64,000 nt of DNA from an uncultured delta proteobacterium (GTDB taxonomy: Bacteria > Desulfobacterota > Binatia > UBA9968), in assembly GCA_963755715.1 (NCBI GenBank), contig CAVWLW010000051.1:56240-120239 (forward strand), in the 5' to 3' direction. The notes under the pieces are model-generated. The model had not been told where the DNA came from. It did not search any database and was given only the letters and a program-made list of their open reading frames with translations. Below are positions 7,223 to 64,000 of the stretch, one piece after another. The position numbers and the translations under genes are program-made. Each line of letters begins with the position of its first letter. Position 1 is the stretch's first letter.

Positions 7223-8644
7223 TCAATCCACGCTCGTCAGCGGTTTTAGTTCGCGCCTGCCCACGCGCGCCACGCCACTTGCCGTGACGATCACATGCTC
7301 GCCGATTTGTACGACGCGGTTTTCCCTCATCACGTCTTGCACGGCATTTCGCTTCATGCGGAGGGCGGGTTTGAAGTCAAAAGTCATCCCGGGCGCGATG
7401 ATAATATCGGATTCTCCTCTGGAATTGGCTGGACCGAGCCGGGGACGAGAAAGGTTGGCGATGCCGCTTGAATGGAGCACGACGCCGGAGCGGTCTTCGG
7501 CGTCGGATTTTTCGACCAGCGCCGCGTAATAGTCTACCAGCTCGCCGCAGGTGGTTTTGCCAGGCACAATAGAAGCGACGCAGTCGTGGAACAGTTTGAT
7601 CGCCGTCGCCATCGCGGCTCGATAATATTCGTAGCCGGGAGTTTTGGTTCCGCCGACGAAGATCGAGTGATTGACCTGAGCCCGGTAGCCTTGCGCCGTA
7701 GCGTCGATTTCCTCGCTGATGATTTGCCCCTCTTTCAGCGGGTCGTCGGTCGGCGCTCCCAAAGTAGCATTGGCTTCGACGTCGAGCGCGATGGAAAGAC
7801 GCGTGGGATCTTCGCCGGTCTCGGCAAACATCGCGGCAAACGTCGGCAACCAAATATCGCCTTGGTGACGCGCCGGCGGACGCGCGGCGCGTCGAATAAC
7901 CTCGATGGCGTTTTCGCCGGCGGCCACGGCGCGCCGAACCACCTCGTGTTCCTCAGTACTTTTCATCATCGCGGGTTCATCGATCGGACCGGCATCGGCA
8001 CCCCATTTCTCAATGGCCAGAAATTGTACGCCCGGGAGCGCAGCCTTGAGATTTTCCAAAAAAGTGGCGGCGACTAGACCTTCGGGATCGAAGCGGCTGC
8101 CGCTGAGCTTGGCCACGCCGATGCGCGCCCCCGGATTATTCAAGCCGAGATTCTTGAACTCCGCAGCGATTGATTTTGAACCTTCACCTTGGTCGATAAC
8201 GAGTTTTCCGTCCGAGCGCCAGGCGTTTAATCGGTTTTCCCAAAAAGCGCGGTTACGCGCGGTGGAAACGAGTGCATGAACCGGCTTGGAATCGTCGCGG
8301 GGAAAAATAACATCGGCGCTGCCGCCGCGCCCGCCGATTTGCGTGAGATAGCGAGGATAAGCGGTGTCGCCGCTAGCCGGCGCCAAGATCGCGTCGAGGT
8401 TCCATTGTGGCTTCGCCATGATCCGTCGCACCGCCGACCAGCGGCGCTCGCGCTCGGCCCGCGAAAAAATCGGAATCATGACGTTGATCTTATCGTTCTT
8501 GACATCCGCCGCGTGGGCGTCTCCGAGCGACGTGAGTGACGCACGCAGAAGCGGGAGCGTAGCGCTCGTCGTTGCCAGCGACTGAAGAAACGCCCGCCGG
8601 GAGGAGAAAAAAGGACTTCGATTTGATTTGGAACTGCGACTCAT
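7223..8644 (-). CDS. Tat-exported M24 (Xaa-Pro peptidase/creatinase) family protein
   Basis: SRRAFLQ Tat motif; FSRAERERRW N-domain; MKSTEE; IGEHVIVTASG. Confidence 0.75.
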   Translation of the reverse strand: MSRSSKSNRSPFFSSRRAFLQSLATTSATLPLLRASLTSLGDAHAADVKNDKINVMIPIFSRAERERRWSAVRRIMAKPQWNLDAILAPASGDTAYPRYLTQIGGRGGSADVIFPRDDSKPVHALVSTARNRAFWENRLNAWRSDGKLVIDQGEGSKSIAAEFKNLGLNNPGARIGVAKLSGSRFDPEGLVAATFLENLKAALPGVQFLAIEKWGADAGPIDEPAMMKSTEEHEVVRRAVAAGENAIEVIRRAARPPARHQGDIWLPTFAAMFAETGEDPTRLSIALDVEANATLGAPTDDPLKEGQIISEEIDATAQGYRAQVNHSIFVGGTKTPGYEYYRAAMATAIKLFHDCVASIVPGKTTCGELVDYYAALVEKSDAEDRSGVVLHSSGIANLSRPRLGPANSRGESDIIIAPGMTFDFKPALRMKRNAVQDVMRENRVVQIGEHVIVTASGVARVGRRELKPLTSVD

Positions 8645-8719
8645 AGCTCAATTCCTCACCGTTAGTTACGCTTGGCGGTCATCACTTGCTTAATCAATAC
8701 CAAGCTTACTAGATTCGAC

Positions 8720-10015
8720 TCACTGCGCCGGCGGAATCTTCCCCTGCGACACGTCCATGATCATGCGCGTGAGTAAATAGAGGCGCGGCTCGATGGAATC
8801 GAGCAGCACATATTCCGCTTCGGCGGAGTGGGCGCCGTAACCCTGCAGGCCGAAGCGCTCGATAACCGGCGCCTTGGTATTGAGCGCGGCGAAAGCCGCA
8901 TCGGTGCCGCCGCCTTCCGCGACGTCATCGACGACGAGCGTCTTGCCAAGCTCGGCGTAAATCTCCTGCGCGTGCTTGGCGAGCGCGCGCGACGCGGCGG
9001 TGGCCTCGAGCGGCGGCCGGCGGCGCTCAAAATTCATCTCGACTTTGGCCTCGGGCAACAGCTGCTTCTTGATCGCGTCACGCACTCTTTTTTCGATGGC
9101 GTCGTAGTCGGCCACGCGCAGAACGCGCACGTCGGCGACGGCCTGAGCGCCGGGCGGGATCATGTTGCGCGTGGTGCCCGCGTTCGCCAGCGTCCAGTTC
9201 ATTTTCAGTCCCACTGCTGGATCCGAGAAATCGCGGGTTTGAAGCACCTGATGGGCGAGCTCGTAGAGCGCGTTGATACCTTTCTCCGGCGCGTTGCCGG
9301 AGTGCGACGCGCGTCCCGTCACCTTCAGCGTAACGGAGGCGATGCCGCTGGTCGCCAACGATAACTTGTCCGACTCCGCGCGCGAGGATTCGACGGAGAA
9401 AGTTGCGTCGTGCTCGGCGCCGAGCTTGGAAATTATGCTGCGCGAGCCCGGCGAGCTGAGCTCCTCGTCGGCGTTGATGAGCACGGTGAGGGTGCCGTAT
9501 TGCTGGAAGTTCGTCGCTTTGAGAATGGCCAGCGTGTGCAAAATCACCGCGATTCCCTGTTTGTCGTCGGCGATGCCCAGGCCGTAGGCCCGATCGCCGT
9601 CGATGCGGAAAGGTTGCTTGGCGAGCATGCCGCGCGGGTAAACCGTGTCCATGTGCGCGATCAGCAGGATTTTCTTTGTTCCCTTGCCGGTGAACGTCGC
9701 GCGCACCATCTTGCCGATTTGCTCGGGCGTATCTTCCATCTTGTAGACATCGCTCGGCGCCACTAATTCAACTTTGCCGCCGAGATCCTTCAATCGTCCG
9801 GCGATAAGATCGGCGAGTTTGCCGAGGCCTTCGAAATCACGACTGCCGGTCTCGATCGAAACCAAGGCCTTCAAGCTTTCGAGCAACGCGGGTTTTTCTT
9901 TTTTCGCCAAGGAAAAAATCGGCTCGTTCGGCTGAGCGTATGCGTGCAGCGAAGTGCCTGCGACCATCAGAGTCAGAGCGACTCTGAGATAATCCAACCG
10001 CATCGATGATTTCAT
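8720..10015 (-). CDS. Glutamate carboxypeptidase (carboxypeptidase G2, M20 family)
   Basis: AHMDTVY, GIADDKQG, DEE, GGGTDAAF, GAHSAEAEY; signal peptide. Confidence 0.9.
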   Translation of the reverse strand: MKSSMRLDYLRVALTLMVAGTSLHAYAQPNEPIFSLAKKEKPALLESLKALVSIETGSRDFEGLGKLADLIAGRLKDLGGKVELVAPSDVYKMEDTPEQIGKMVRATFTGKGTKKILLIAHMDTVYPRGMLAKQPFRIDGDRAYGLGIADDKQGIAVILHTLAILKATNFQQYGTLTVLINADEELSSPGSRSIISKLGAEHDATFSVESSRAESDKLSLATSGIASVTLKVTGRASHSGNAPEKGINALYELAHQVLQTRDFSDPAVGLKMNWTLANAGTTRNMIPPGAQAVADVRVLRVADYDAIEKRVRDAIKKQLLPEAKVEMNFERRRPPLEATAASRALAKHAQEIYAELGKTLVVDDVAEGGGTDAAFAALNTKAPVIERFGLQGYGAHSAEAEYVLLDSIEPRLYLLTRMIMDVSQGKIPPAQ

Positions 10016-51167: not shown

Positions 51168-52190
51168 ATGAAACGAATCGTCATCTGTTTCGACGGGACC
51201 TGGAGCAAACCGGCGGACGAAGCGTTGCCGGCCGACGGCCGGGTGGAAACCAATGTGTGCCGGTTTTACGAATCGATAAAAGATAAAGCGGCGGACGGCA
51301 CCAAGCAGGTGAAATGGTACGACGAAGGCGTTGGCACCCAATGGTACGACCGCTTCATCGGCGGCTCCATCGGCGCCGGCCTCGAGCTCAACATCGTCCA
51401 AGGTTACGAGTATCTCGCTCAGCAATACGAGGCCGGCGACGAAGTCTACGTCCTCGGTTTTAGCCGCGGCGCGTACACGGCGCGCAGCTTGGTTGGGATG
51501 ATTCGTAACTGCGGTTTGATCTACCCGAAACATTTGACACTGCGTGTCGGCATGGCCTACGGCATCTATCGAACCCGCGGCGACAACGTCGATTCATTCA
51601 CGGCAAAGACTTTTCGCGCGGCGTTTTGTCGCGAGATCAAAATCAAGTTCATCGGGGTTTGGGATACCGTCGGCGCGCTTGGCATACCGCTCACTGTTTT
51701 GAAAGACGTCAACATGAAATTCTACGAGTTTCACGATACGAATCTAAGCAATATAGTCGAAAACGCCTATCACGCCCTCGCCATCGACGAGCATCGCCAA
51801 GATTACATGGCCACTCTATGGAATCCGGACACCGCGCCACAGCAGAAGCTCGAGCAGCGCTGGTTTGTCGGCGCCCACTGCGACGTGGGTGGCGGTTATA
51901 AAGACCGGCGTCTTTCCGATATTACGCTCGGTTGGATGCAACAGAAGGCGAGCGCGCTCGGGCTGGCGCTCGACTCCGTGCAAGTGGGGGCGAAAAATTA
52001 TCTGGGCGACTGGACGGACTCTTACGGCAAGTTTCTCGGCGGCCTCTATGCCAAAAAAAATCCGCGTTACTATCGGCCCATCGGCGCCACTAAGTTCGGC
52101 GACGAAATCATCGATGCGTCGGTGCAGCAACGGCGTAAGGAAGAGCGCGCTTACGAGCCGCAAAATAATGGCTTGCCGAAGCTGAGCTGA
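51168..52190 (+). CDS. DUF2235 alpha/beta hydrolase (Tle1-like)
   Basis: CFDGTW, GFSRGAYTARS, GVWDTVGALG, HALAIDEHR, WFVGAHCDVGGG. Confidence 0.92.
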   Translation: MKRIVICFDGTWSKPADEALPADGRVETNVCRFYESIKDKAADGTKQVKWYDEGVGTQWYDRFIGGSIGAGLELNIVQGYEYLAQQYEAGDEVYVLGFSRGAYTARSLVGMIRNCGLIYPKHLTLRVGMAYGIYRTRGDNVDSFTAKTFRAAFCREIKIKFIGVWDTVGALGIPLTVLKDVNMKFYEFHDTNLSNIVENAYHALAIDEHRQDYMATLWNPDTAPQQKLEQRWFVGAHCDVGGGYKDRRLSDITLGWMQQKASALGLALDSVQVGAKNYLGDWTDSYGKFLGGLYAKKNPRYYRPIGATKFGDEIIDASVQQRRKEERAYEPQNNGLPKLS

Positions 52191-52550
52191 TCATGGTGTG
52201 GAGGAATGCAGTTTAGATTGCCCATGGCTCATGAGCCATCTGATGGCATCGACGAGCAACAAGCGATTCGTGTAGCTTTTCGAGGAACGCCTGCCCGCTC
52301 GCTATCATTGCTAGAGATGCCTTGCGTTCGTTGCATACCAGGGCAGACGTTTCGCAATCCGGTAATTGCATCGGTTTGTCCCACTCCTAAGAATCGCACA
52401 TTCGCGGTCGGTCCCAGGGAACCTGTCAGCAGTTCCCTTCACTATTTGACGCCTATGTAGGTTAAATTCTAGCAAGAGCCGCAAATCCGACGGTCGCACT
52501 TCATACCGAAGTCTCTGTCCTACAGAGGTTTTTTCACGCAGAGTTAGAGC

Positions 52551-52566
52551 AGGCATGTTCCTTGCT
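52551..52566 (+). promoter_or_regulatory. Sigma-54-like motif
   Basis: AGGCAT-GTTCC-TTGCT; very close to the next ATG. Confidence 0.4.
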
Positions 52567-52580
52567 CATTTTGCTGCTCT

Positions 52581-52781
52581 ATGGAGTATTGCTGTCAGCA
52601 CTGCAATCGCTTCACAATGGGGAACGCCTATAGAGTCAGGAGCGAGGAATTCGGGCGAGTGATGCTGGACATAATTGTTTGCTATGAGTGTTGCCTTGAC
52701 GCGCGGCTACTTGGCCTTCATACAGACCAAATAAAATTGCGCGGTTCCGCTTGTGAATCTCAGCCCGATGCTACGACCTGA
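52581..52781 (+). CDS. Small Cys-rich (CxxC...CxxC) protein
   Basis: CQHC ... CYEC; no clear RBS. Confidence 0.5.
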   Translation: MEYCCQHCNRFTMGNAYRVRSEEFGRVMLDIIVCYECCLDARLLGLHTDQIKLRGSACESQPDATT

Positions 52782-53268
52782 AGGTCTGATTCCCAAAGAT
52801 CACATCCTTTGTTTGATTGACCACTACGTCGATTTTTTCCTTCATTCGACCAAGGTAGATCCTGCCGGCGAGCCTTACGCGAAGAATCTCGGCGCCGTAC
52901 TACATGCGAATCTATTGAAAGATCGCTCGCAATGTTCGTGATCTTATTGTCCCAAAGTAAGGACGGAGCAGCAAGTCTATTGCGAATGTGGCACGCGATA
53001 CCCGACCATAGGGCTGAAAAATCTAACCAAAATAATTGGTATATCTGTTGCGTCCTGCTGAAGATGTGCCGCCCGGCGAAAACGTTTTTTCGGCGGAATC
53101 AAAAAATCGGGATACGATCGGGAAACTGCCCACGAGTTCGTGAATAGAAAGATCGTCCATGCTCGGCTCCTAGGCGTTAGTTGGACCGACAGTCGCTGGA
53201 AGCTACCGCGTAAGGATGTCGTTGGCTGGGGAGCCAGCAAGATCACTAGATATAGGGAGGATACTGTC

Positions 53269-53559
53269 ATGACCGATCAGAAAGAACCGATCCTCGACTT
53301 TGAAACAGAGCGAAGCCTAAACGCTAAGTGTTTAGTGTTGGAGATGCCGGGGCAAACTTGGCATGTCCCGTTCAACTCTCTGCAGGGGATCCCGCGGGTG
53401 GGGGAAAAAATTCGCTTTGCCGGTGGCAGCTCAGGCAAAGTCGCCGAAGTCGAGTATGAATTCGCGCCTGAGGAGGCGGCACCGTTCGAAGTGGCCAGGG
53501 AAATGCCCGCCGCCGCGTCATACGCGCGACCCGTCCGAATTGTGATCAGACTGTCGTGA
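53269..53559 (+). CDS. Hypothetical protein
   Basis: RBS GGGAGG; IPRVGEKI...VAEVEYEF. Confidence 0.7.
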   Translation: MTDQKEPILDFETERSLNAKCLVLEMPGQTWHVPFNSLQGIPRVGEKIRFAGGSSGKVAEVEYEFAPEEAAPFEVAREMPAAASYARPVRIVIRLS

Positions 53560-53804
53560 TGGGTACGGCCGGCTCATTTCTGAGCCCGAAGCAATTGGAG
53601 TGCGCCAGTGCTCACATTTGCCATTTCGGCCGGCGACGCGTTCGAAGCGCCCAGTTGGCGGGCAATTCTTCCTGAGTTGGTTATAAAGATGATCTGGCGA
53701 CTGCATCGGCCATCGGCGGATTGAATTCAACCTGGCATGTACTCGCTCAAAAACAGAAACCTAATGGGAGACCCCTAATCCTTGCTTGAACGGAACAACG
53801 CCAA

Positions 53805-54834
53805 CAAAGGGGTCAAGTCCGCTTTTTGCTTTTTGTTAAGGCTTCTTCAATCTTCCGAACTCTTTGCTGAAGCGGCTTCTCCTTCGCCACTCGCTCCTTC
53901 ATCAGCAAATAGGCCGAGCTCACCGACGACGTTTTCCCTAGTCCAACCGTTTTGCCGATCTCTTCATGCCTGTGACCGCCCAATTGCCGGCCGAGATAAA
54001 TCGCTACCATCCGTGCCTCGTTCTCCCGGCCTCTCTTTCGCCGCTTCAACTCCTGGACCGCCTTCCCATATCCCCGTGCCATCGCCTCTACGATCTCGTC
54101 GAGAGGCGGGCTAAAAGCCGCCTCGATTCGGGCTTCTCCTCGTCCACCCGGGCCTTTTTTCCCAGCCGTTGTTTACCCTTCCCATGAATTCCTTGCTTCC
54201 CAATACCGGTTTCAGGTACGGGCCCTGGTAAAACTCCTCAATCTCTTCTTCGATCTCTTCATGCATGAATCTCTGATATTCTTTAAACCCACCGAACTGT
54301 GACATGACCGAGCGCGTATCAAGCCAGTCGGGGCATTGTTTTTTGTCCCCAATGACTGCTCCAACGGTAGCGGTCTATATTCGATACCACGCCGCCGCCC
54401 AGAGGGTTTTTGTGAATATAGCGGACCACCGATAGAAAATATCTTCCGCATCAATGAGAATCGCTTTGTACCGGCCACGAAACAGCGGTCCGTCGCGATG
54501 ATGGACTCGGTTAAACTTCTGGGTATAGATCCCATCGAGATGGCGCATCGGCCGGGCAAGACCTGCCGTCGGGGTCGACAGCAGGAGATGGTAGTGGTTA
54601 TCCATCAAGCAATAGGCATAGATCTCAACCTTCCACAGCCGGGCCATGTCGGCGAGCAGGTCGAGAAAAGTCTGCCGTCCTTTGTCTTCGATGAAGATAT
54701 TACGGCGGGATTGGCCCCGGTTCATGACGTGATAGTACGCGCCGGGGTATTCGATCCGTAACGGTCTGGCCATGCCGACCTTCTATTTCATCTAAATCTC
54801 GTATCAATAGCTAAAAGCGGACTTGACCCCTTTG
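53805..54834 (-). mobile_element. RAYT/HUH (Y1) transposase element bounded by 26-bp inverted repeats
   Basis: Left CAAAGGGGTCAAGTCCGCTTTTTGCT (53805-53830) versus the reverse complement of 54809-54834, 25/26 identical. Confidence 0.85.
53813..54773 (-). CDS. REP-associated tyrosine transposase with C-terminal DnaA-like HTH, several frameshifts
   Basis: MARPLRIEYPGAYYHVMNRG, MDNHYHLL, LFRGRYKA, RYIHKNP, YRWSS, ARMVAIYL...EIGK. Confidence 0.88.
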
Positions 54835-54976
54835 GCGACCCCTGATCCGCGCCGCTGATATTTCGGCGTTCGATGGTATCTCGACACGTCGCGGCTCTTA
54901 ACAAATATCTCTTAGTCACTGCCGGGTAACTTGAAATTCATCCTGTATCAGGCAGTTACGGCAGGATGCCTCCGGC

Positions 54977-54991
54977 TGGTACGGACGTTGC
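54977..54991 (+). promoter_or_regulatory. Sigma-54-like promoter
   Basis: TGGTAC-GGACG-TTGC about 40 nt before the 55032 ATG. Confidence 0.6.
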
Positions 54992-55031
54992 GCTATCAGT
55001 TGTCAGGATGCAAAGAAGGGAGGTGAGAAAT

Positions 55032-55334
55032 ATGAAAATCGCAACATCATTTTTGGCAGCTTTGCTTTTCACAGGCGCACTGGGATCAATTAACACCGCA
55101 ATGAGCGCGGATGGCGTTATCTCGAAAGACGAGCTCGCTACAGGTAGTTACTGTCACGAGAAGTTCACACCGATGACGAGACAGACTCTTGATGCCGATA
55201 ACCCGGTCATCAATAACTCCGGCGCTATCATCGACTTCTACGGGCCGTGCGACGAGAGTCCCGTTGGGGAAGATCAAATCCAAGATCAAAAGCTGGAAGC
55301 CCAGCATCATTTTACGAACGATGACGTGTTTTGA
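55032..55334 (+). CDS. Small secreted protein with one Cys pair
   Basis: RBS GGAGGTG; signal peptide; SYCHEKF...IIDFYGPCDE. Confidence 0.8.
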   Translation: MKIATSFLAALLFTGALGSINTAMSADGVISKDELATGSYCHEKFTPMTRQTLDADNPVINNSGAIIDFYGPCDESPVGEDQIQDQKLEAQHHFTNDDVF

Positions 55335-55358
55335 TGCTGGTAAACGGCGTGTTGTTAA

Positions 55359-55380
55359 GAGGAGGGCCACGGCCCTCCTC
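55359..55380. terminator. Strong hairpin downstream of the secreted protein
   Basis: GAGGAGGGCC-AC-GGCCCTCCTC perfect inverted repeat. Confidence 0.65.
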
Positions 55381-55522
55381 TACCGCCACCTGCTTCTTAT
55401 TCGCTAACGTAGCTCCGTTCGTGAACGATCCGTCGAGGAAGCTGCGGAGCTGTTTGTTCAAAGCGTCCAGTCAACCAGCTTTCTTGAGCAGTCTATGACG
55501 CAATAATCTAAACGAGTGTCTG

Positions 55523-56008
55523 TCATGACGGGTTGCGCTTTTCATAAAGTTCAAGAAAAAAACTGTAGAACGAGGACACCGGGCGCTCCTCTCTGTGCTC
55601 GTGACGCGATTTATCCCGATATACGAGTGTTATGGAAATAGGTCTTTTGTGCAGCTCTACTAGCTCCGCCTCTTGGGAGTCGAGATATGCGCCTATTGTA
55701 CGAAGGATGTTGGATAGATCGCTAAACTGTATAAGTTGTCCTTGCTTAGAGCGTCGAGCTCGGCCACGTTTTGATAGTTCCTCAACATCCCCTAATTCAA
55801 ATCCGTAGGTTACAAATTCATTGTCGCTATCACGGTGTCCGCGTAGCCAATTCCGTATTGTTGAGTGGAAGGACGGCGTGTGCTCACGCAGGTCTTTGAT
55901 AAAATACCCAGCCCTTGCGTTGTACAATTCAAAACCAGTAACGCCCTTGGCTTCGAGCGATTGGCCGATAGCTCTCAGCTCTTCATCGTATCGCCTGGGA
56001 GCCGCCAT
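55523..56008 (-). CDS. Hypothetical protein with an internal repeat (LRAIGQSLE / LRTIGAYLD)
   Basis: 161-aa ORF with two similar LRxIGxxL segments. Confidence 0.7.
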   Translation of the reverse strand: MAAPRRYDEELRAIGQSLEAKGVTGFELYNARAGYFIKDLREHTPSFHSTIRNWLRGHRDSDNEFVTYGFELGDVEELSKRGRARRSKQGQLIQFSDLSNILRTIGAYLDSQEAELVELHKRPISITLVYRDKSRHEHREERPVSSFYSFFLELYEKRNPS

Positions 56009-56379
56009 AAAGCACTTACCCACCGCTGTCGGAGCGCAATTTCCGGCTGGATGCTCCGGTACATTTTGAGTGGATTGGCTTTCTCTGAAAGCCGCCGCTA
56101 GAACCCAGGTGCCCATGCCAGAATTGAAGCAGGACCAAGCCGGCTTTTCTACGGCTCCTGCGGCTCTATTAATAGCTGCCGTCTTATCCGGGTACACAGC
56201 ATTTCTAATTCTCGCCGAGTTATGCTGATACGAGCCCCCGAGTGCGGGGGCCATTTTTGACTCCCGATTAAATTCTGCTTCAAATTATTTCAAAAACGCG
56301 TCCAATATTGAACAGAACTCTATGCCTACATAGGGGATTGTCTAGAGGACCGAGAGCCCGAGCCTAAAGGAAGGTCCTC

Positions 56380-56568
56380 ATGATGCCCGTAGAGCTCAAA
56401 CTGATTACCGAAAGAACGCACGACCTTATTGCGGCTGCCAACCATACACTTGAGTATGCAAAAATTGTAATCGAGGAATCGAAAAAATTGATTCTTGGCA
56501 TAAATGAAAAACGCCTTCAATTTACGATATCGACTAGCTCCCAAACTTTTCCGGGCCACAAACCCTAG
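56380..56568 (+). CDS. Small helical hypothetical protein
   Basis: RBS AAGGAAGG; amphipathic helix IVIEESKKLI. Confidence 0.45.
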   Translation: MMPVELKLITERTHDLIAAANHTLEYAKIVIEESKKLILGINEKRLQFTISTSSQTFPGHKP

Positions 56569-56588
56569 CCTACAGGGGAGGTTCTGCA

Positions 56589-56792
56589 ATGCCACAACCA
56601 ACAGCGATAAACTTTTGGAAGACGAATCGACGACTACAAGAGGAGTCCCGCATACTGCGCGAAGCTTTTAATTTACAAGCATCAAGAAAACTAATTGCCC
56701 GTGCTAAAGAGACGATGGAGACCATTAAATCACCAAACTCGTTCAGCCATCGCGGAGAACCTTCAGCGCCTCAGCGTCCGACAAAGCCTTGA
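56589..56792 (+). CDS. Small helical hypothetical protein
   Basis: RBS GGGGAGG; LQEESRIL...SRKLIARAKE. Confidence 0.5.
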   Translation: MPQPTAINFWKTNRRLQEESRILREAFNLQASRKLIARAKETMETIKSPNSFSHRGEPSAPQRPTKP

Positions 56793-57111
56793 GCAAATTT
56801 CTTACGCGCCGGATTGCCCACGCCGTCAATTTGCATTGGGTCACAACAAAAAACGCTTTGGCGGTCTTCGCCATCCATTTCGCGAGCTGCCCGACACCGA
56901 TTACCGTGGGCATTTTTGGTAGTCGATAAGACTTATACATTGTGACAACTGACATTGCTGCGTCGCAAATGCGTGGCAAGTCTGGCTCGAAGGGCTCCCG
57001 ATTGACCTGATTCCATTCGCATAAAAAGTTTCAGGCAAAGTTGCCGTCCGCCTTACGAACCTTCAACTACCGCGCGTTGATCAAATCTCTCTAAAGTCCG
57101 ATTGAAACTGA

Positions 57112-57127
57112 AGGCACAATCCGTGCT
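57112..57127 (+). promoter_or_regulatory. Sigma-54-like promoter
   Basis: AGGCAC-AATCC-GTGCT. Confidence 0.5.
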
Positions 57128-57176
57128 CAATCTGTATTTAAGCTAGGGTAAAGAGCATCGCATGCACGGAGGTGAA

Positions 57177-57296
57177 ATGATGAAATTTAGAGAAATGTCG
57201 CTCTGGTATAAGTTATCCATTATCGCCGCTGCTCTTGTCGGTGGCGTAGTGACTCGCTATGCAACACTCGTCATCATGGCCGGGGGTCATTTCTGA
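57177..57296 (+). CDS. 39-aa hydrophobic microprotein (not in the ORF track)
   Basis: RBS GGAGGTG; MMKFREMSLWYKLSIIAAALVGGVVTRYATLVIMAGGHF*. Confidence 0.6.
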   Translation: MMKFREMSLWYKLSIIAAALVGGVVTRYATLVIMAGGHF

Positions 57297-57327
57297 CATC
57301 GAGAGTCTTAGAGTCGACCGAGAAGTG

Positions 57328-57573
57328 ATGAAAAACTCATATATGATTCTGGAAACGGAACTTAGCCCGGCTGAAGTGGACGGGCTGCGCGAAGTTACTC
57401 GTCATGCACCAGCGAAAAGCGGGATTTCGAAAAAAGTGCGCGACCGGTTGGTTACATTTGGTTATATCGAACAAAGGATCGGTCGTCTTACGCCCACTGC
57501 CAAAGGCATTTTGTATTTTGCACGTCACAGAAGAGAACATCTAAGAGTATCTCACCTTAGCCGAAATCACTGA
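57328..57573 (+). CDS. Small winged-helix-like protein
   Basis: RDRLVTFGYIEQRIGRLTPTAKG resembles a wHTH wing. Confidence 0.5.
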   Translation: MKNSYMILETELSPAEVDGLREVTRHAPAKSGISKKVRDRLVTFGYIEQRIGRLTPTAKGILYFARHRREHLRVSHLSRNH

Positions 57574-57611
57574 GGCGCGGGCATTCACCTTTTTTAGCCC
57601 CGGAGAATACA

Positions 57612-58031
57612 CTATCTAACGTTTGAGCTTATCGCTGCAGTTCGTGGAGCGTCAGGTGGTTGGTAGTCTAGATGTCGCTGCATTGCGGCACGAAGCAATT
57701 TCAATGCGAAAGGCTTGTGCATTATTTCGTCCGCCCCGGCGGTGATGGCTCGATCGACAAGCGATCCGTAGGAAAAGGCGGTGGTTACGATCACGGGTAT
57801 GTTTCGTGTCGACGGATCCGCTTTGAGCCGCGCTGTTGCTTGATCTCCCGTCATCGCAGGCATGTCGAGATCCATGATAATTAGATTGGGACGGGTCACG
57901 CGTGCTTGACTTACGGCCTCAAACCCCGTCGCCGCTTCAACACCGTCATAGCCTGATCGTAGGAGAAAGAGCATAATCATTTCTCGATAATCAGCATCAT
58001 CCTCAACAACAAGGATCTTGTTATTGCTCAT
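57612..58031 (-). CDS. Single-domain response regulator (DivK/CheY-like)
   Basis: ILVVEDD, LIIMDLDMP, TTA, HKPF. Confidence 0.92.
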   Translation of the reverse strand: MSNNKILVVEDDADYREMIMLFLLRSGYDGVEAATGFEAVSQARVTRPNLIIMDLDMPAMTGDQATARLKADPSTRNIPVIVTTAFSYGSLVDRAITAGADEIMHKPFALKLLRAAMQRHLDYQPPDAPRTAAISSNVR

Positions 58032-58339
58032 GGTCGTCTCCGCCTGGAGCACAAACGGTGCCGTTTCGAGTTTGGTTTAACACTTTTGGGCATATGAAGG
58101 AGTTGGTTGGCGTCGCTGGGACATTCCACTCCTTCAGGGGAGCGGAAGAGGAACTTGACCAAAAATTTCTATGGCTGCAAAAGAATACATCTCTGCTGAA
58201 GGGTTTCACCTGCGGGCGTGATTAATTGGGGTGCCCGATGTGCGAATCGACGGCCGGTTTTTTTGGTAATGCTAATTAAGCTGAATCCCGTCCGGCCCTA
58301 CGCCTTCCTCTTGCACTTCTACAATCGCCCGCGCAGACA

Positions 58340-58825
58340 TCATTCCGTCAGCGAACCGGGGCTACTCAATTTAAACTTCTTGCTCACCTCTGTATCCTTG
58401 AGTCTCAATAGCCACATAACAAAGCCAACGACCGTTCCGACTCCTGCAACCAACGGACCGTCAAGAAAAATTATTGAAAATGGGCCTTGAGGGCTATTGT
58501 AGTACGCGCTAATTGCAATAACTATTAACGAGGCAATTCCGACACCGCCCAACGCCCACCCCGCTACAGAACACAAAAAGTCGAAAGTTTGCTCTGCCAA
58601 CTTTATTTTTTTCAAAAGCCCCAGAATCAGGAAAACGATAACACTCAACAGAAACGCGACAGGCACGAGAAACAATATTCCCATCCACAAATAATTAATG
58701 ATATCCGGTGAATCAATGTAAAATTCTAACACCAAAGCACGTATGAGAACTGTTGAGAAAATCACTGTGCAACCGATGATTCGTCTTGCTATCATAAACT
58801 CCACCGACGTAACAGTGATTTGCAA
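58340..58825 (-). CDS. Small multi-pass membrane protein; 5' end abuts an IS scar
   Basis: About four hydrophobic segments; AT-rich. Confidence 0.65.
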   Translation of the reverse strand: MQITVTSVEFMIARRIIGCTVIFSTVLIRALVLEFYIDSPDIINYLWMGILFLVPVAFLLSVIVFLILGLLKKIKLAEQTFDFLCSVAGWALGGVGIASLIVIAISAYYNSPQGPFSIIFLDGPLVAGVGTVVGFVMWLLRLKDTEVSKKFKLSSPGSLTE

Positions 58826-58922
58826 TTGTTGCTATAATGCAGTGGCGGAGAGTTTCTTCAACTCACTGAAGAATGAGCTCGTGCATCACCGTAGTTTCAA
58901 GTTTCGTGACGAAGTCAGAGAT
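58824..58922 (+). mobile_element. Remnant of an IS3-family transposase (integrase core C-terminus)
   Basis: NCCYNAVAESFFNSLKNELVHHRSFKFRDEVR matches the IS3 NCxDNAxxESFFxxLKxE motif. Confidence 0.8.
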
Positions 58923-58945
58923 GCTCCTTGTTTCGCTTGTTCGCT

Positions 58946-59331
58946 TCACTCGCTCTTACTCGTGGCACAAAAAATCGTGCCAATACCCAACACCAGCATC
59001 GGACCACTGTAAGCAATAAAATACCATACGATGTCGTGCAAATGCCGATCAGTTTGCATGCTTGCTATGGCAAACAAAAACGATAAAACAGAACCAACAA
59101 TCAACCAAGTATCACCGATCTTTGGCCAGAAATAACTAACAATCACTGCGGGCAGCGTTGACAATGGCCCTGATACAATAAAATTCCACGTCGAGGATGG
59201 CTCATCATTACGGAAAACGAACATTGCTCTCAGTGCCAACCATAGGTGCGTACAACCCAAGACTATTCCCGCCAACAGCAAAATATACTTCAGAAAACGT
59301 TCTATATCTTTACCTTTGACAAAAGTTTCAT
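58946..59331 (-). CDS. Small four-TM membrane protein
   Basis: Four hydrophobic segments; start uncertain (likely frameshift). Confidence 0.65.
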
Positions 59332-59423
59332 CGATCCCCTTCACGGCCTTGCTCGGCGCGGGTTCTTCTTCAATCCGTCGCCGTAACTTCGTGCGTTTCC
59401 GGCTCACCGCTGAACAACTGGAA

Positions 59424-61039
59424 TCAGCATTCGCCAATATATGCTTGTGTTGGCGTACGCTCAAAGCTATAGAACCTTTCCCATGTCTCTCCCGGACTCA
59501 GCATCACGGCAATATCCGCTCGCTACAACGGAATTGTTCAACTCTTGGCCGAGAGTCCCTCGATAAACGATGATTGCCATATACCCATTACCGTAACAGC
59601 AGAGGGCTGGTGGAGCTGTCGTGGGAAAAGGCAGCGAGTCAAACCCGAAGGTAACGGTCTGACGTTCGGCGCTAATCGTGAAGGGAACCTCATTAGAGAC
59701 GACGACTAAGGGCTTCGGCCCCGGAGAAAGCGGTCCGTCTGGTTGCCCAGTGAAAGAATTTCTGTGCAACAAAACCATACGAATCGTTCCGCTACCGGTT
59801 TGTTGCCCTTCTCCAATAATCTTTACGCCTTCTACATCGATCGAGGTTGGTCTCTCTTCCCAGGGAACTAGGACGTACCCAAAGGGTGGATCAGCCGTAT
59901 CGACTTGTCCCCGAAAAAAATAGTCGATCAGTCCAGCGGAATAGCCGATGGCGCGGGGGAAAAGCTTTCTGCCGTAGCCGTCGTGAACATTGTCATCAAG
60001 ACCAAAATCAATGGCGTCGGGCGGGACGGTCGCGTTGGCAAATAGAGCCATCCTGACCGAAACACCCACCCAATAATCGTGCTCGCCAAAACCTTGGCGG
60101 AATCTCGCGTAGCGCCTTTGCGCTCCGCTAGGAGAGGGGCCTATCGGAATTCGACACAGTTGGAGATAAGTTGGATACTGGTAAAACGTCGAGCGAGCAG
60201 TTCCTTTGCTGATGAAGTTGGCATTTGAGTACTCGGCCAATCCAATATTGAAATTTGGGGACAAGACACCAAAGTCGCCATCGCTCTTGTCAATAATCCG
60301 AGCGATAGGAACGGGTGCGAGAGGATTTGGACTCGGTTGATTGAGTATCGACGGATCAAATCGAAGTGCTTGAGTTACACCGTTGATGCGATTCAATCCA
60401 ATCGGACTATCGGCCCAATAGTGGAATGGATCAGCATCGATCTTGAGACCAGAGTAAGGCTCAACGAGATGGCTATCATTGCGGGTATGCGCCGGCACTG
60501 CCGCATCTTGCACTATATGAATGACGTCCGAGTGTTTGAAACAACTCAGCATACCAGGTCTTTCTTAGCTCCTTCGTTGTACTCGTTAATGCGTTAAATA
60601 TGTGTCTCGCGCGTCTTTCCACGAGTGCAGCCCAGCGGAACTTTGCGCCGGATTCTCTTGGCTCCAAACAACTGACGACTGAGGAGTGACTTGGGTGGTA
60701 AAAAGGCCCGCCGAGTCCCATAACCTCGTTGGATCATGAAAGTGGCGCAATGGTCGCGTGCTCTGATCCTCATGCACTGCACCTACGCGAATCTGTCCTT
60801 GTACCGTTCCATCCTGACCACCGTGAAGCAGTTCGTTGATTCCTTGGGAAAACTCAAATCCTAGTACGCTCTTGAGAAATGTATCCAACATTGAGGCATT
60901 TGGTAGTCCTGGGTTGATAGCACGTGTGCTAAGTATCTTGTGCGCGTTATCGTTGAAGCCTTCACTAGTGCCAGGATTGCCAGCCCAAGCGGCTATCGTA
61001 AGAAGTAATCCAATGATCCAATCGGCGTCTTTGGGGCAT
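59424..61039 (-). CDS. Secreted Zn-dependent phospholipase C / P1-S1 nuclease-fold protein, several frameshifts
   Basis: RBS AGGAGGAGG; signal peptide then FNDNAH; HED...RHFHDP; HIVQDAAVPAH; FHYWAD. Confidence 0.7.
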
Positions 61040-61119
61040 CACAATCCTCCTCCTTTAACTGGTCAAATGAGTCGCTGATGTTGAGTATATTCGGGGCAAT
61101 CATACTTACCAAACCTACC

Positions 61120-61495
61120 TTAATGGATTCTTAGGTTACGACCGATCAAAAGGGTCATGAAAAACAAAATGGCTAATAAACACAACCGCCGCGATACGAG
61201 CACGCCGTAGCGGATTCGCATACACTCAAACACGAGGACCGCATCGAGCACCAATGAACGCGAATACAGCGGCTGAAATAATTGCGGCAACCCCGCGCCA
61301 CAGCATCGATTCCTGTGTAGCGACACCCAAAAAATCGATAATAATGCCAATAACGTAGAGGGCGGGTAGCAAAAGCAAAATTTCCCCAACGGTTCCTAAC
61401 ATTGCAAGCCACAGTACAAAAAAGATGCCGGCGCCCCATAGCGCCCCCGAACTCGTCCCTGCAAGTGATTTCGGAACATCAGATTCTTTCGACAC
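61120..61495 (-). CDS. Small multi-pass membrane protein, frameshifted
   Basis: Overlapping hydrophobic ORFs 61226-61495 and 61120-61389; RBS GAGGAG. Confidence 0.6.
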
Positions 61496-61568
61496 GCGTG
61501 ACCTACTCCTCGATTAATTCTAAAGGCGCTAACCATCCTGCGCTGCCACATCCAGGTCGAACCAAAAA

Positions 61569-64000
61569 TTAGGCACTAGCTTCCTTAAAAAAACTGATTC
61601 TCCACACTCCATCTTGATCCAACGTGAAGAGAACCATATATGACACATTTCCTTCAGGACCATCGTTCATCACCATCTCGTATTCGACCTCCAAACCTTT
61701 TGTCGTCTGGTAAGTGATATTACCAGGAAGCATTTGATCGATGGACTAGAATGGAATCGTGAGGTTATTAAAGACCGTCTGATACGACGCTCTCTTATTC
61801 ATAACAATGTAGCTCGCCGCGACGGCGGTGTTGCCGCTTCGTAAAGCATTCTTCATTCCGTCCCACTTGACCCTTAAAACAACATCAAGTTGAGCGTTGT
61901 CTACAATCTGAACGATGGCGAAGTCCATATACACCGAACTGTCAGCATGCGTAACCTTGACGGTAGGGAAATAGATCCCCGGCTCGGCAAATGTGACGCT
62001 CAATCCGTCGAGCGTCGTCCCGGTGAAATCAATCGTCCCGTCACCATTGGCATCCAGTTGTATCTGAGAAATCTCATTGATGCTCACCAAGGAAAATGCA
62101 ACGGGTTCCGATACTAGCGCAATTGCTGGAGTTGATCGAAAGGTCAAAACAGGCTCGCTGGTCGGCAATTGCGGCGTAACGGCACCGCATCGCCGGCAAT
62201 CAAGTTTCCAGTGGTATTCTTCAGCGTCGCCGTCAACATCGTCGTTTGCGAATCAATCGGAACAAACGTGCGAGAACTCGTCGCCATCCTGAAGGGCGAC
62301 GTATCCGTTGACCGTAATACCAACTTCCGAAGCGAGGGACGTGTCAAAATGTCCCGTCACCAATACGCTGAAATCGCTTACGGTGGCGCCTGCTACCGGT
62401 GTTTGCACGGCAATACCGAAGTTGAGGCTTAGATCGACGGTAGTCGTATTTCCACTGCTAACAATAACGCTATTGAGCATTTGCGGCACAAGCCCCGCGA
62501 AGGAGGCGCGGACTGTGTAAGTGCCCGTGGCTAGTCCGGTGGTCGAGTAATTGCCCGACGAATTGGTAACCGCCGTGCCCCTGAGCGCGGTGCCCTGGAA
62601 TGCTTCCACCAGCGCACCGGTGATCGTCGCCCCATTGCTGACGCGCGTAATGACACCGGCGATTATTCCTGTACCGGTCGGCGACGTGATGTTGAAAGGA
62701 TTGCTGATGGCGCTCGTAAGGCCGGCGGCGGAAGCCGTAAGCGTATAGCCGTTACCTGGCTGATTGATACTCAGCGCTGGGAAGCTAACGCTCGCATTCG
62801 AAGTCACGGTCATGTTGCCGCTAAGAGTTCCAGCACCGGGGTTGGTCCCGATTGCGATGCTGATCGAGTGGGTCGAGGACGTGACGGTATTGCCAGCATT
62901 GTCTTGTACCGTGACCGTTGGCGGCCCGGGAATTGTGCTCTTGGCTGCGGCGTTTCCTGGCTGAGTGGTAAAGGCGAGTCGAGCTGCGGCACCAGGAGAA
63001 ACAGTGAACGGAGCAGTATCTCCCGCAATCAGTGTGTCGCCACTGGTGCGCGCGGCGGTAAGCACTACGCCGCTCTCGGCTTTGGTATAGGTCGCTAAGC
63101 CAATCGTTACCTGGCTGGTTCCCGCAAAATCGTACCGCTGAGCGTTCCACCTAGCGTTCCCGTGCCGGTCTTAACGCTCACGGTTATCGCGGTATTGCTT
63201 GATACGTTGGTAGCAACTCCCGACGGTGATCTGGACTCTACAACCATCGAGAAGCCAGGTGTTCCCGCGGTTATATTTTGATTGACCGATATCGCAAGCT
63301 TGTTAATAGCCGCAGTAACAGTGACCGCGTTACTCGTCGCGATCCGAGTATAGGTATCATTTGGCAGAAGTCTGAACTCATAAGTGCCCGGCGGTCGGGA
63401 CGATGAAATGGGAAACGAACAGGAGCCGGATGCGACTGGAACGCTTGGCGAGGGGCTACAATTGACATACAGCCAATAAGGTATGGAAGTGTCGCTGCTT
63501 CCGGGAGCATATAACCCAATCCAATCTCTGTTAGTTGCATTGGGAATCTGCCCCATGTACGGTAAATGAATCACCTGCAGACACTGACGTTGGCGTGGCG
63601 GACAAGGTGACAGACGAAGAGTGACGTTAAACGCGGTGCTCGTCACACTTGTAAGCCCGAAGAGGCGGCTGACAGAGTGTAGCCGGTTCCCAGTTGAGTG
63701 ATGCTGAGATCCGTGAAAACTGCGACACCGGAACTTGCATTCCTCGTCGTTGTCCCGGTTAACACGCCGCTTCCCGGATTCGATGCGATTGCGGCAGTTA
63801 TCGAAGCTGTGGAAGACGTGATGGTGTTTCCAAAACCGTCTTGGACGACAATCGTAGGAGGGCCTGACAATGCGCCTCCCGCGCCCGCGTTGCCGGGCTG
63901 CACCGAAAAAGCGAGTTTGTTTGCCGCTCCCGCGCTGACATTGAATGCACTACTCGTTGCCCCTGTCAGGCCTGTGGCTGAAGCAGCCAGGGTATAGCCG
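61569..64000 (-). CDS. 3' part of a large Ig-repeat surface protein (invasin-like repeats, DWIGLY domain, carboxypeptidase-regulatory-like domain, PKD-like domain, C-terminal alpha/beta domain), frameshifted, 5' end outside the window
   Basis: Repeats LAFxxQPGNA...VQD.xGNT.TSS...GYTLxA; DWIGLY...PGTYEFRL; GALVEAF...SSGNYS..GTYTVRAS; DANGDG...PGIYFPTVKV; KWDGMKNAL...DQDGVWRISFF. Confidence 0.85.

Follow-up and report, generated by a model that had tools for sequence, protein, structure and literature searches.

The last 64 kb of contig C51 in a metagenome-assembled genome of an uncultured delta proteobacterium (this 64-kb stretch is hereafter the window; the genome has 7.4 Mb in 76 contigs, a completeness of 93.6% and a G + C content of 0.56) closes with a minus-strand run of genes for a large immunoglobulin (Ig)-repeat stalk protein, a small membrane protein and a secreted enzyme resembling the zinc phospholipases C (PLCs). 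Our comparative analyses showed that the stalk tail, a middle gene and the enzyme constitute a widespread, undescribed three-gene cassette, and that the NTF2-like end of the tail, the middle gene and the catalytic domain of the enzyme are exchanged between close relatives as toxin loci are. The stalk tail is predicted, from a modelled complex, to bind the catalytic domain. We estimate at somewhat under one half (roughly 0.45) the probability that the cassette encodes a Sec-exported polymorphic carrier-enzyme system, probably antagonistic, in which the middle gene is a candidate immunity gene. An original prediction, made from the letters of the window alone, had proposed a Sec-exported antagonism or scavenging system of stalk and enzyme with membrane proteins as immunity factors; the pairing, the folds, the predicted docking and the polymorphism that it implied found support, while its assignment of immunity to the downstream membrane open reading frames (ORFs) did not. 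Intact natural relatives (P0002, P0325 and L099) served in place of the broken genes of the window.

Conservation of the three-gene cassette

Loci were fetched around relatives of the enzyme, 79 from genomes and 78 from metagenomes. Co-occurrence of stalk and enzyme, the test named in advance, came out in favour of the pairing: among the genome loci with at least 1500 nt of upstream DNA, 56 of 62 had matches to segments of the window's stalk tail on the same strand as the enzyme and no more than 3 kb upstream of it. A tail profile matched in 60/63 and 32/33 cases, figures that are partly circular since the profile was built from the same loci. Within the taxonomic family of the window, the enzyme was found in 9 of 89 other genomes (7 of 87 without G022 and G041, two of the nine that are unpublished), and the tail module adjoins it in all nine; three further genomes of the family carry the tail module only, the contig of one of them stopping after the middle gene. 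A middle gene of ~200 amino acids (aa), with weak similarity to CarboxypepD_reg, lies between stalk and enzyme in 72 of the 79 genome loci. No other neighbour was conserved in these 79 loci, a Y1 transposase-like gene (~310 aa at full length) being present 3' of the enzyme in seven.

The upstream proteins range from 400 to more than 3000 aa, and their heads are unrelated, the tail alone being common to them. This tail consists of a Glucodextran_B-like sandwich, a PKD-like domain and an NTF2-like domain, in that order, while the heads of seven upstream proteins contain PD40, NHL and SBBP propellers, BACON, PKD, fn3, Lcl_C and DUF7948 domains. The cassette is carried by Nitrospirota, Methylomirabilota (Rokubacteria), Desulfobacterota and others, the carriers being bacteria of soil, groundwater and sediment. 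One locus, L011, comes from a metagenome bin labelled Klebsiella pneumoniae; the label looks doubtful, as all other carriers belong to environmental phyla.

Neither the Pfam matches of the run, nor the seven upstream proteins, nor the conserved neighbours of the 79 loci included CdiB or two-partner secretion (TPS), Rhs/YD, VgrG, PAAR or LXG signatures, the rest of the genome lying outside this search; the Pfam scan of the run thereby agrees with the earlier statement that no CdiB, Rhs/YD, VgrG or PAAR signature is visible. No paper on such a cassette was found in full-text searches of the literature.

Exchange of alleles and orphan arrays

The window shares 94-97% DNA identity with L099 and L100 over 64000-61978 and again over 59967-58544, and the block between them (61978-59967) showed no DNA similarity to either relative by blastn and alignments. 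On the stalk side, the exchanged block begins in the last third of the PKD domain; it takes in the NTF2 domain, the middle gene and the whole catalytic domain, and ends at the conserved PRAIGYSAGLIDYFF motif of the enzyme. Enzymes of the window, L099 and P0005 types are 93-96% identical in their C-terminal domains and 46-50% identical in their catalytic domains. A second swap is seen between L131 and L132, whose identity is 98.8% as far as the stalk ends and 94% from the AEYSNANFFSDD motif on; the pair is wholly different in the middle gene and the first ~215 enzyme codons only. In both swaps seen, the middle gene was exchanged with the catalytic part, an association for which its position alone could account.

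In L113, L081 and L016, a cassette with a full-length stalk is followed by more cassettes, whose stalk ORFs have their starts within domains and no signal peptide; a part of their enzymes is split. In L113 (251-14073), four cassettes follow one another: the stalk is complete and has a signal peptide in the first and is truncated in the later ones, the enzyme of the third is split and the fourth is cut short. L081, with three cassettes, comes from a cultured bacterium, Desulfosarcina alkanivorans PL12. Comparison of 45 cassettes further revealed many pairs that are alike in their flanks and unlike in the NTF2 and catalytic domains, and many pairs in which the reverse holds. The block exchange and the orphan arrays bear out that the locus is polymorphic.

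Fold of the enzyme

A 365-aa piece of the window's enzyme retrieved 156 relatives, mostly "hypothetical proteins" of 530-540 aa without Pfam domains. A profile search among 1.84 billion sequences returned 6808 representatives of the enzyme family at E ≤ 0.001 and 2381 at E ≤ 1e-30, with the catalytic part N-terminal in every match; the family comprises thousands of sequence clusters, mostly from uncultured phyla of soil, sediment and groundwater.

The structure model of P0002 (predicted local distance difference test, pLDDT, 84.9) was compared with known folds using VIA-align and matched zinc PLCs with Z scores of 16.9 (1olp), 16.3 (1ca1) and 16.3 (1ah7), at a root-mean-square deviation (rmsd) of 3.2-3.7 over 214-220 residues. 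In the match with 1ah7, 214 of 245 residues were aligned at an rmsd of 3.6, and model residue 25 fell on residue 1 of the chain. The S1, SmNuc1 and 3w52 nucleases were matched with Z scores of 11.3-13.3, and Foldseek pointed to the same fold families (E 5.8e-5). On the evidence of the model, the enzyme has the all-alpha PLC/P1 fold, as had been foreseen; the Sec export foreseen along with it is borne out by signal peptides, which stop directly before a conserved Phe in P0002, P0005, P0023, P0050 and L099. The last 165 residues form a beta-sandwich with generic matches only (Z ~6).

Members of the zinc PLC and S1/P1 superfamily have nine zinc ligands, among them a free N-terminal aromatic residue. 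The invariant or near-invariant columns of the enzyme family are H30, E85-D86, H95/H97, H172, D176, H182, H188, D201, H204 and F25; the His, Asp and Glu columns stand in the right order and F25 on chain residue 1, a comparison of the order of the columns and not of each ligand. Catalytic activity on phosphodiester bonds of lipids or nucleic acids is putative.

Sequence models do not cover this family. No window ORF matched PF00882 at the Pfam gathering cut-off, the enzyme profile found no PDB chain sequence at E ≤ 10, and neither NCBIfam nor PADLOC yielded a match above noise for the enzyme, the tail, the middle protein or the membrane ORFs. In a protein atlas, the enzyme fell into unnamed clusters only, and scores for the stalk head were all below 0.9.

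Stalk tail and its predicted complex with the enzyme

As described originally, the stalk is a large multi-Ig protein that ends in a compact non-Ig domain. When the 250 C-terminal residues of the L099 stalk were modelled (pLDDT 94.3), the guess that this domain might be NTF2-like was confirmed: model residues 148-250 matched NTF2-like structures with Z scores of 9-10.6 and rmsd of 2.5-3.3 over 92-100 aligned residues, and more than 15 NTF2-like or cystatin-like entries were matched by this segment.

The same 250 residues were modelled together with the mature L099 enzyme, each with its own alignment. The complex scored 0.80, compared with 0.00 for the best of three controls; for calibration, 116 of 157 solved complexes and two of 215 mismatched pairs scored this high, counts that are approximate here as own alignments were used. 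Runs agreed in at least 79% of contacts, and the pLDDT of the partners was at least 86. The tightest predicted contacts join enzyme residues 277-317 to residues 186-250 of the NTF2 domain, and in the L131/L132 swap this enzyme stretch was retained together with the NTF2 domain, which did not change. Additional predicted contacts (residues 2-7, 50-62 and 162-180) flank the conserved metal motifs, so that the tail would sit at the rim of the presumed active site. We know of no solved complex between a stalk tail and a PLC-like enzyme of this kind, and memory is therefore an unlikely source of the model. Thus, the suggested docking of the C-terminal stalk domain on the enzyme is supported at the level of a predicted interaction, which involves the catalytic domain.

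The middle gene

Among 111 middle proteins, 110 have a hydrophobic leader, 23 of these with a lipobox-like motif. In most relatives the middle protein is an exported beta-sandwich protein that is absent from the window, and 27 middle proteins used as tblastn queries had no counterpart in the genome to which the window belongs. Cassettes of the window type (the window, L097, L098 and L104) have instead a 125-aa four-helix membrane protein in this place. It belongs to a family of four proteins (TM1; 125-128 aa, four predicted helices); the gene is open for 131 codons in L097, which is 94% identical, and broken in the window near 61230 and 61177. In either form, the middle gene is a candidate immunity gene whose product may protect the producing cell.

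A tandem pair of middle genes separates stalk and enzyme in ~20 loci (L010, L017, L027, L075, L127, L134, L144, L147, L153 and others), many of them labelled Rokubacteria. In L009, L035 and L053, an N-terminal fragment of the enzyme (100-195 codons) lies between two middle genes and before the full enzyme, which looks like the footprint of a past recombination. The Nitrospirae locus L057 contains an 8-helix membrane ORF (8315-9232) between the stalk and the middle gene; it weakly resembles the 125-aa membrane protein of the window type, with 33% identity over 87 aa and an E value of 1.6e-4 that comes from a tiny search.

Organization of the locus in the window

The ORFs listed in the original prediction are all present and lie on the minus strand within 58340-64000, where it had placed them (Table 1). 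Only the 3' part of the stalk gene falls in the window, and its pieces gave no Pfam domain other than CarboxypepD_reg. The head, an unbroken stretch of 741 codons with a signal peptide and four Ig-like repeats, stands at the start of contig C52. In L099, a contig of a soil metagenome, the same stalk gene is unbroken over 1464 codons and is colinear with the C52 head (93% aa identity) followed by the window tail (94% DNA identity). The end of C51 (63798-64000) and the start of C52 (G000:C52:43-246) overlap by ~200 bases in the repeat region of the stalk, with only 90% identity, and the assembly break between these contigs seems to lie where strains differ.

Table 1. Features of the cassette and its downstream flank in the window
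Feature	Position	Strand	Remarks
Stalk gene, 3' part, ~810 codons	64000->61569	minus	cut by contig end; three-frame reading
Ig-like repeat unit of stalk	63646..63999	minus	63-67% identical to three C52 repeats, 96% to L099
CarboxypepD_reg domain of stalk	62424..62663	minus	Pfam PF13620, E 8.9e-14
PKD-like domain, conserved stalk tail	61899..62153	minus	predicted from L099 homologue model, residues 61-148; PKD/Ig Z 9.5-11.1
NTF2-like last stalk domain (KWDGMKNAL ... DGVWRISFF)	61572..61898	minus	predicted from structure model of L099 homologue
Exchanged cassette: PKD end, NTF2 domain, middle gene, whole catalytic domain	59967..61978	.	blastn and alignments; 49% domain identity, compared with 96%
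Small membrane gene TM1	61120..61513	minus	truncated here to ORF 61226-61495; 3' part out of frame
Secreted zinc PLC-like enzyme gene	61039->59424	minus	homologues 530-540 aa; window-type intact form P0325, 537 aa
Enzyme, signal peptide	61039-60958	minus	
Enzyme, catalytic domain	60957-59914	minus	
Enzyme, C-terminal beta-sandwich	59913-59427	minus	
Hydrophobic ORF, 172 codons, 3 predicted helices	58946..59464	minus	annotated start overlaps true end of enzyme
IS3-family transposase remnant, 3' end, ~32 codons	58824..58919	plus	rve_2 E 0.0026, below cut-off
TM3 small membrane protein gene	58340..58795	minus	161-codon ORF 58340-58825, 5 predicted helices

Downstream of the enzyme, two further multi-pass ORFs separated by an insertion sequence (IS) scar were seen as described, and the three membrane ORFs of the run (TM1, 58946-59464 and 58340-58825) are unrelated to one another. 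The first of the two, 58946-59464, is doubtful as a gene: its only relatives are in L099 and L100 (78-85% aa identity), it shows no sign of constraint (ratio of nonsynonymous to synonymous substitution rates, dN/dS, 0.92) and it had no Pfam or PADLOC match. The second, TM3, is a member of a genuine family: its 41 relatives are 89-166 aa long and share 54-95% identity with it, and one of them carries a Verrucomicrobia label, which is no more than a lead. Between them, 58824-58919 reads as an IS3 scar and not as a complete element; C50 encodes a full-length IS3 OrfB with which the remnant has 69% identity across 32 aa. Beside it, 288 bases (58544-58831) are identical to L100:4047-4334 and the DNA on the enzyme side differs by ~5%, which may mark a recent transfer.

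These two ORFs had been expected to vary between strains as cognate or orphan immunity genes. They are 94-100% identical where the cassette has been replaced and absent from all other loci fetched, and their role as immunity genes is rejected on both counts; the gene that swaps along with the catalytic domain is the middle gene between stalk and enzyme. The two downstream membrane ORFs are neighbours outside the cassette.

Several other genes were observed farther downstream. An intact 340-aa protein with a Tle1-like (DUF2235) phospholipase domain of the type VI secretion system (T6SS; Pfam E 5.2e-81) is encoded on the plus strand at 51168-52190, at a distance of 7 kb from the cassette. It falls into a 90% cluster of 113 members, and another assembly encodes the identical protein on a 501-kb contig. 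At 53813-54773 of the minus strand, a Y1 (IS200-like) transposase domain (54375-54773) and a DnaA_C-type helix-turn-helix (53813-54082) occupy separate ORFs, as if one gene had been split. The region 52200-58000 has few long ORFs and a G + C content of 0.48-0.54 compared with 0.56 for the genome; it includes a 243-codon ORF (55523-56254) whose 90% cluster has 232 members, and an orphan response-regulator gene lies at 57612-58052.

Frame breaks: consensus error or decay

At least 13 frame-breaking lesions occur in ~4.6 kb across the stalk, small membrane and enzyme genes of the window. Compared with intact relatives, the stalk switches frame near 63658, 63619, 63557, 63550, 63127, 62270 and 62179 and has an in-frame stop at 61746-61748, inside the NTF2-like domain; the enzyme gene is broken near 61027, 60598, 60524 and 59493, and its true C-terminus (...AYIGEC) lies in another frame, at 59522-59427. 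None of these lesions was found in L097 (96% identical DNA over 2.4 kb), L099 or L100, or in any of the contigs that cover the region in four public runs from soil and rhizosphere. These runs represent relatives and not the window's own reads, no public run containing more than 24% of the sampled words, and are uninformative for the parts without cover.

The locus of the window might be a truly decayed pseudogene, a functionless relic in a degrading island marked by IS elements. That the lesions are so many and private to this assembly, that some are 2-nt differences outside homopolymers, that an IS3 remnant and a split Y1 transposase lie near the cassette and that long ORFs are few at 52.2-58 kb would all suit such decay, which we regard as plausible, if somewhat short of an even chance. 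Substitution rates point the other way. Compared with L099, the broken tail has a synonymous rate (dS) of 0.123, a nonsynonymous rate (dN) of 0.036 and a dN/dS of 0.29, and the C52 head, without a break in 741 codons, has values of 0.130, 0.033 and 0.25; the enzyme has a dN/dS of 0.24 compared with L097. As tail and head have similar rates, there is no excess of neutral substitutions to match so many indels. In addition, the 90% identity of the overlap between C51 and C52 suggests mixed strains at the assembly break, and split copies of the same enzyme occur in other long-contig assemblies as well. Since many indels without extra substitutions are concentrated at a naturally polymorphic locus and at an assembly break, we consider consensus errors at a strain-variable locus somewhat more probable than decay. 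A strain-variable locus can thus resemble a string of pseudogenes in a metagenome-assembled genome.

Possible functions of the cassette

In the mechanism that we propose, gene 1 would encode a Sec-exported carrier with a lineage-specific N-terminal part (Ig repeats here) and a constant tail. Gene 2 would encode a small exported or membrane-bound protein, either of ~200 aa with a leader or lipobox and a CarboxypepD_reg-like sandwich or of the 125-aa four-helix type, and gene 3 a secreted enzyme of ~530 aa, in which a putative tri-zinc domain of the PLC/P1-nuclease type, with the mature N-terminal Phe placed on PLC Trp1, would be followed by a disulfide-type beta-sandwich domain. After export, the stalk tail would grip the catalytic domain of the enzyme near the edge of the metal site, and the stalk head would bind the target surface. 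The phosphodiester bonds cut by the enzyme may be those of membrane lipids, with nucleic acids as a less likely target, and gene 2 would protect the producing cell. Recombination at conserved motifs would replace the NTF2 tail, gene 2 and the catalytic domain as one block, and displaced 5'-truncated copies would pile up downstream.

Because the cassette behaves like polymorphic toxin-immunity loci, competition between bacteria is the likeliest role, and the view of a weapon docked on its carrier is favoured by the block exchange, the orphan cassettes, the patchy distribution and the cassette-specific exported partner. More tentatively, as a proposal that we consider possible but rather less than evenly probable, the cassettes may represent a new class of Sec-exported polymorphic weapons, in which a free zinc PLC-like toxin is docked on the NTF2-PKD tip of diverse stalks, immunity is cassette-specific and alleles are shuffled within species. 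Several observations weigh against the antagonistic interpretation. No secretion marker in the run or among conserved neighbours indicates how two Sec-exported proteins would leave a diderm cell or reach a target; the variable part of the stalk is not a toxin domain, and the alleles of the enzyme keep one fold, unlike classic polymorphic toxins. The enzyme family does not reach the Pfam model Zn_dep_PLPC, only 8 of 45 relatives giving matches at E ≤ 1 (best 0.013), and two genomes of the family have short ORFs of the tail only, without the enzyme. In the L131/L132 swap, the NTF2 tail is the same and two thirds of the catalytic domain are replaced, and the co-exchange of gene 2 is possibly a matter of geometry, since this gene lies between the recombining ends. 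Over the 45 cassettes, the NTF2 domain and the catalytic domain correlated only weakly in their pairwise identities (rho 0.36), no better than other pairs of regions (0.09-0.51), and corrected tests were modest (partial r 0.39 compared with 0.15 for PKD; Mantel 1/2000 and 81/2000).

An alternative hypothesis is that stalk and enzyme form a scavenging complex tethered to the cell surface, in which the head would bind particles or debris, the enzyme would release phosphate, choline or nucleotides, the middle protein would help in assembly or anchoring, and the exchange would reflect adaptation to substrate or habitat or escape from phages or grazers. The fold family does include nutritional secreted PLCs and S1/P1 nucleases, domains that bind glycans and surfaces (BACON, PKD, Lcl_C and beta-propellers) occur in the heads, the neighbourhood has no conserved delivery machinery, the carriers live in soil, groundwater and sediment, and the predicted complex suits a dock as well as an inhibitor. 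Housekeeping scavenging enzymes, however, are not usually replaced as blocks between 95%-identical strains, nor do they leave orphan arrays; the patchy distribution (9 of 89 family genomes) and an exported, cassette-specific partner that is always encoded with the catalytic domain also speak against scavenging, which we regard as unlikely in both its central claim and its account of the middle protein and the exchange. That the enzyme acts on the stalk itself, in its maturation or anchoring, is more improbable still. A constant C-terminal module on unrelated exported proteins next to a dedicated enzyme is the pattern of a sorting system, and the model places the last stalk residues (248-250) against the enzyme, which might process this module or link it to a lipid or the envelope. 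Yet carrier and enzyme are paired one to one rather than one enzyme serving many substrates, NTF2 is a folded globular domain where a sorting signal would be a short tail, such a role would not account for the exchange of catalytic-domain alleles, and we know of no PLC-fold enzyme that processes or anchors a sorting signal. As for accidental adjacency of unrelated genes, the two downstream membrane ORFs do behave as unrelated neighbours, but order and strand are kept in 56/62 and 72/79 loci of several phyla and in 9/9 family genomes; for the three core genes, chance adjacency is refuted by these counts, and as an account of the whole run it has next to no credibility.

In either case, a large enzyme family that Pfam, NCBIfam and PADLOC models do not represent has gained two fixed partners and a predicted complex, in phyla about whose ways of competing or feeding little is known. 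If the cassettes are weapons, the idea of polymorphic toxins would be widened to a carrier and toxin joined without a covalent link, and cognate allele sets such as L131 and L132 would make specificity testable; if they are scavenging docks, they would represent a new way of tethering an enzyme to the cell surface.

Comparison with known systems

The phospholipases of the T6SS (Tle) are alpha/beta hydrolases delivered by that system, and their immunity proteins (Tli) are periplasmic lipoproteins. The cassette resembles them in setting a lipid-cutting effector beside a small exported, often lipid-anchored partner, both of which are candidate roles here; unlike Tle, the enzyme has a PLC-like fold and is exported by Sec.

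Polymorphic toxin loci with orphan cassettes, including contact-dependent growth inhibition (CDI; CdiA-CT/CdiI) and Rhs loci, have been surveyed (PMC3482391). As in CDI and Rhs loci, a conserved carrier has an exchangeable C-terminal end and downstream gene(s), recombination takes place between close relatives, and 5'-truncated orphan cassettes stand in tandem; of the features of polymorphic toxins, the variable end on a conserved carrier and the orphan cassettes were thus found, and a toxin domain at the carrier end and delivery markers were not found in the cassettes. Unlike those loci, the cassette is without CdiB, Rhs/YD, PAAR and VgrG, and its candidate toxin is secreted separately from the carrier, by a signal peptide of its own; the gene order is carrier, small protein, enzyme. 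The exchanged end of the stalk is a PKD and NTF2-like binding domain instead of a toxin. Membership in CDI or Rhs systems is rejected for lack of their markers.

The Het-C toxin domain (Tox-HET-C), predicted to have the PLC/S1-P1 fold (PMC3482391), is of the same superfamily and has been proposed as a toxin of conflict systems; there it is fused to the carrier, and it is a different family, as only one of 45 enzyme members touches Pfam Het-C (E 0.35). NTF2-like domains also serve as binding or extracellular sensor modules in Imm-NTF2 immunity proteins (PMC3482391) and in the S1C-NTF2 of RsgI9 (7sjy), with no sequence relation shown to the present one, which ends a giant exported protein.

The closest likeness in fold is to the zinc PLCs (Bacillus cereus PC-PLC, Listeria PlcB and the clostridial alpha-toxins; PF00882), whose all-helical fold is matched by the modelled enzyme with Z scores of 16-17, compared with 11-13 for the S1/P1 nucleases. 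The mature N-terminal aromatic residue falls on PLC residue 1, the His and Asp motifs follow in the same order and, as in alpha-toxin, a beta-sandwich comes after the catalytic domain. Identity is 14-16%; the catalytic domain of the enzyme is ~130 residues longer, its C-terminal domain matches generic sandwiches only and, unlike the zinc PLCs, it is always encoded together with two partner genes.

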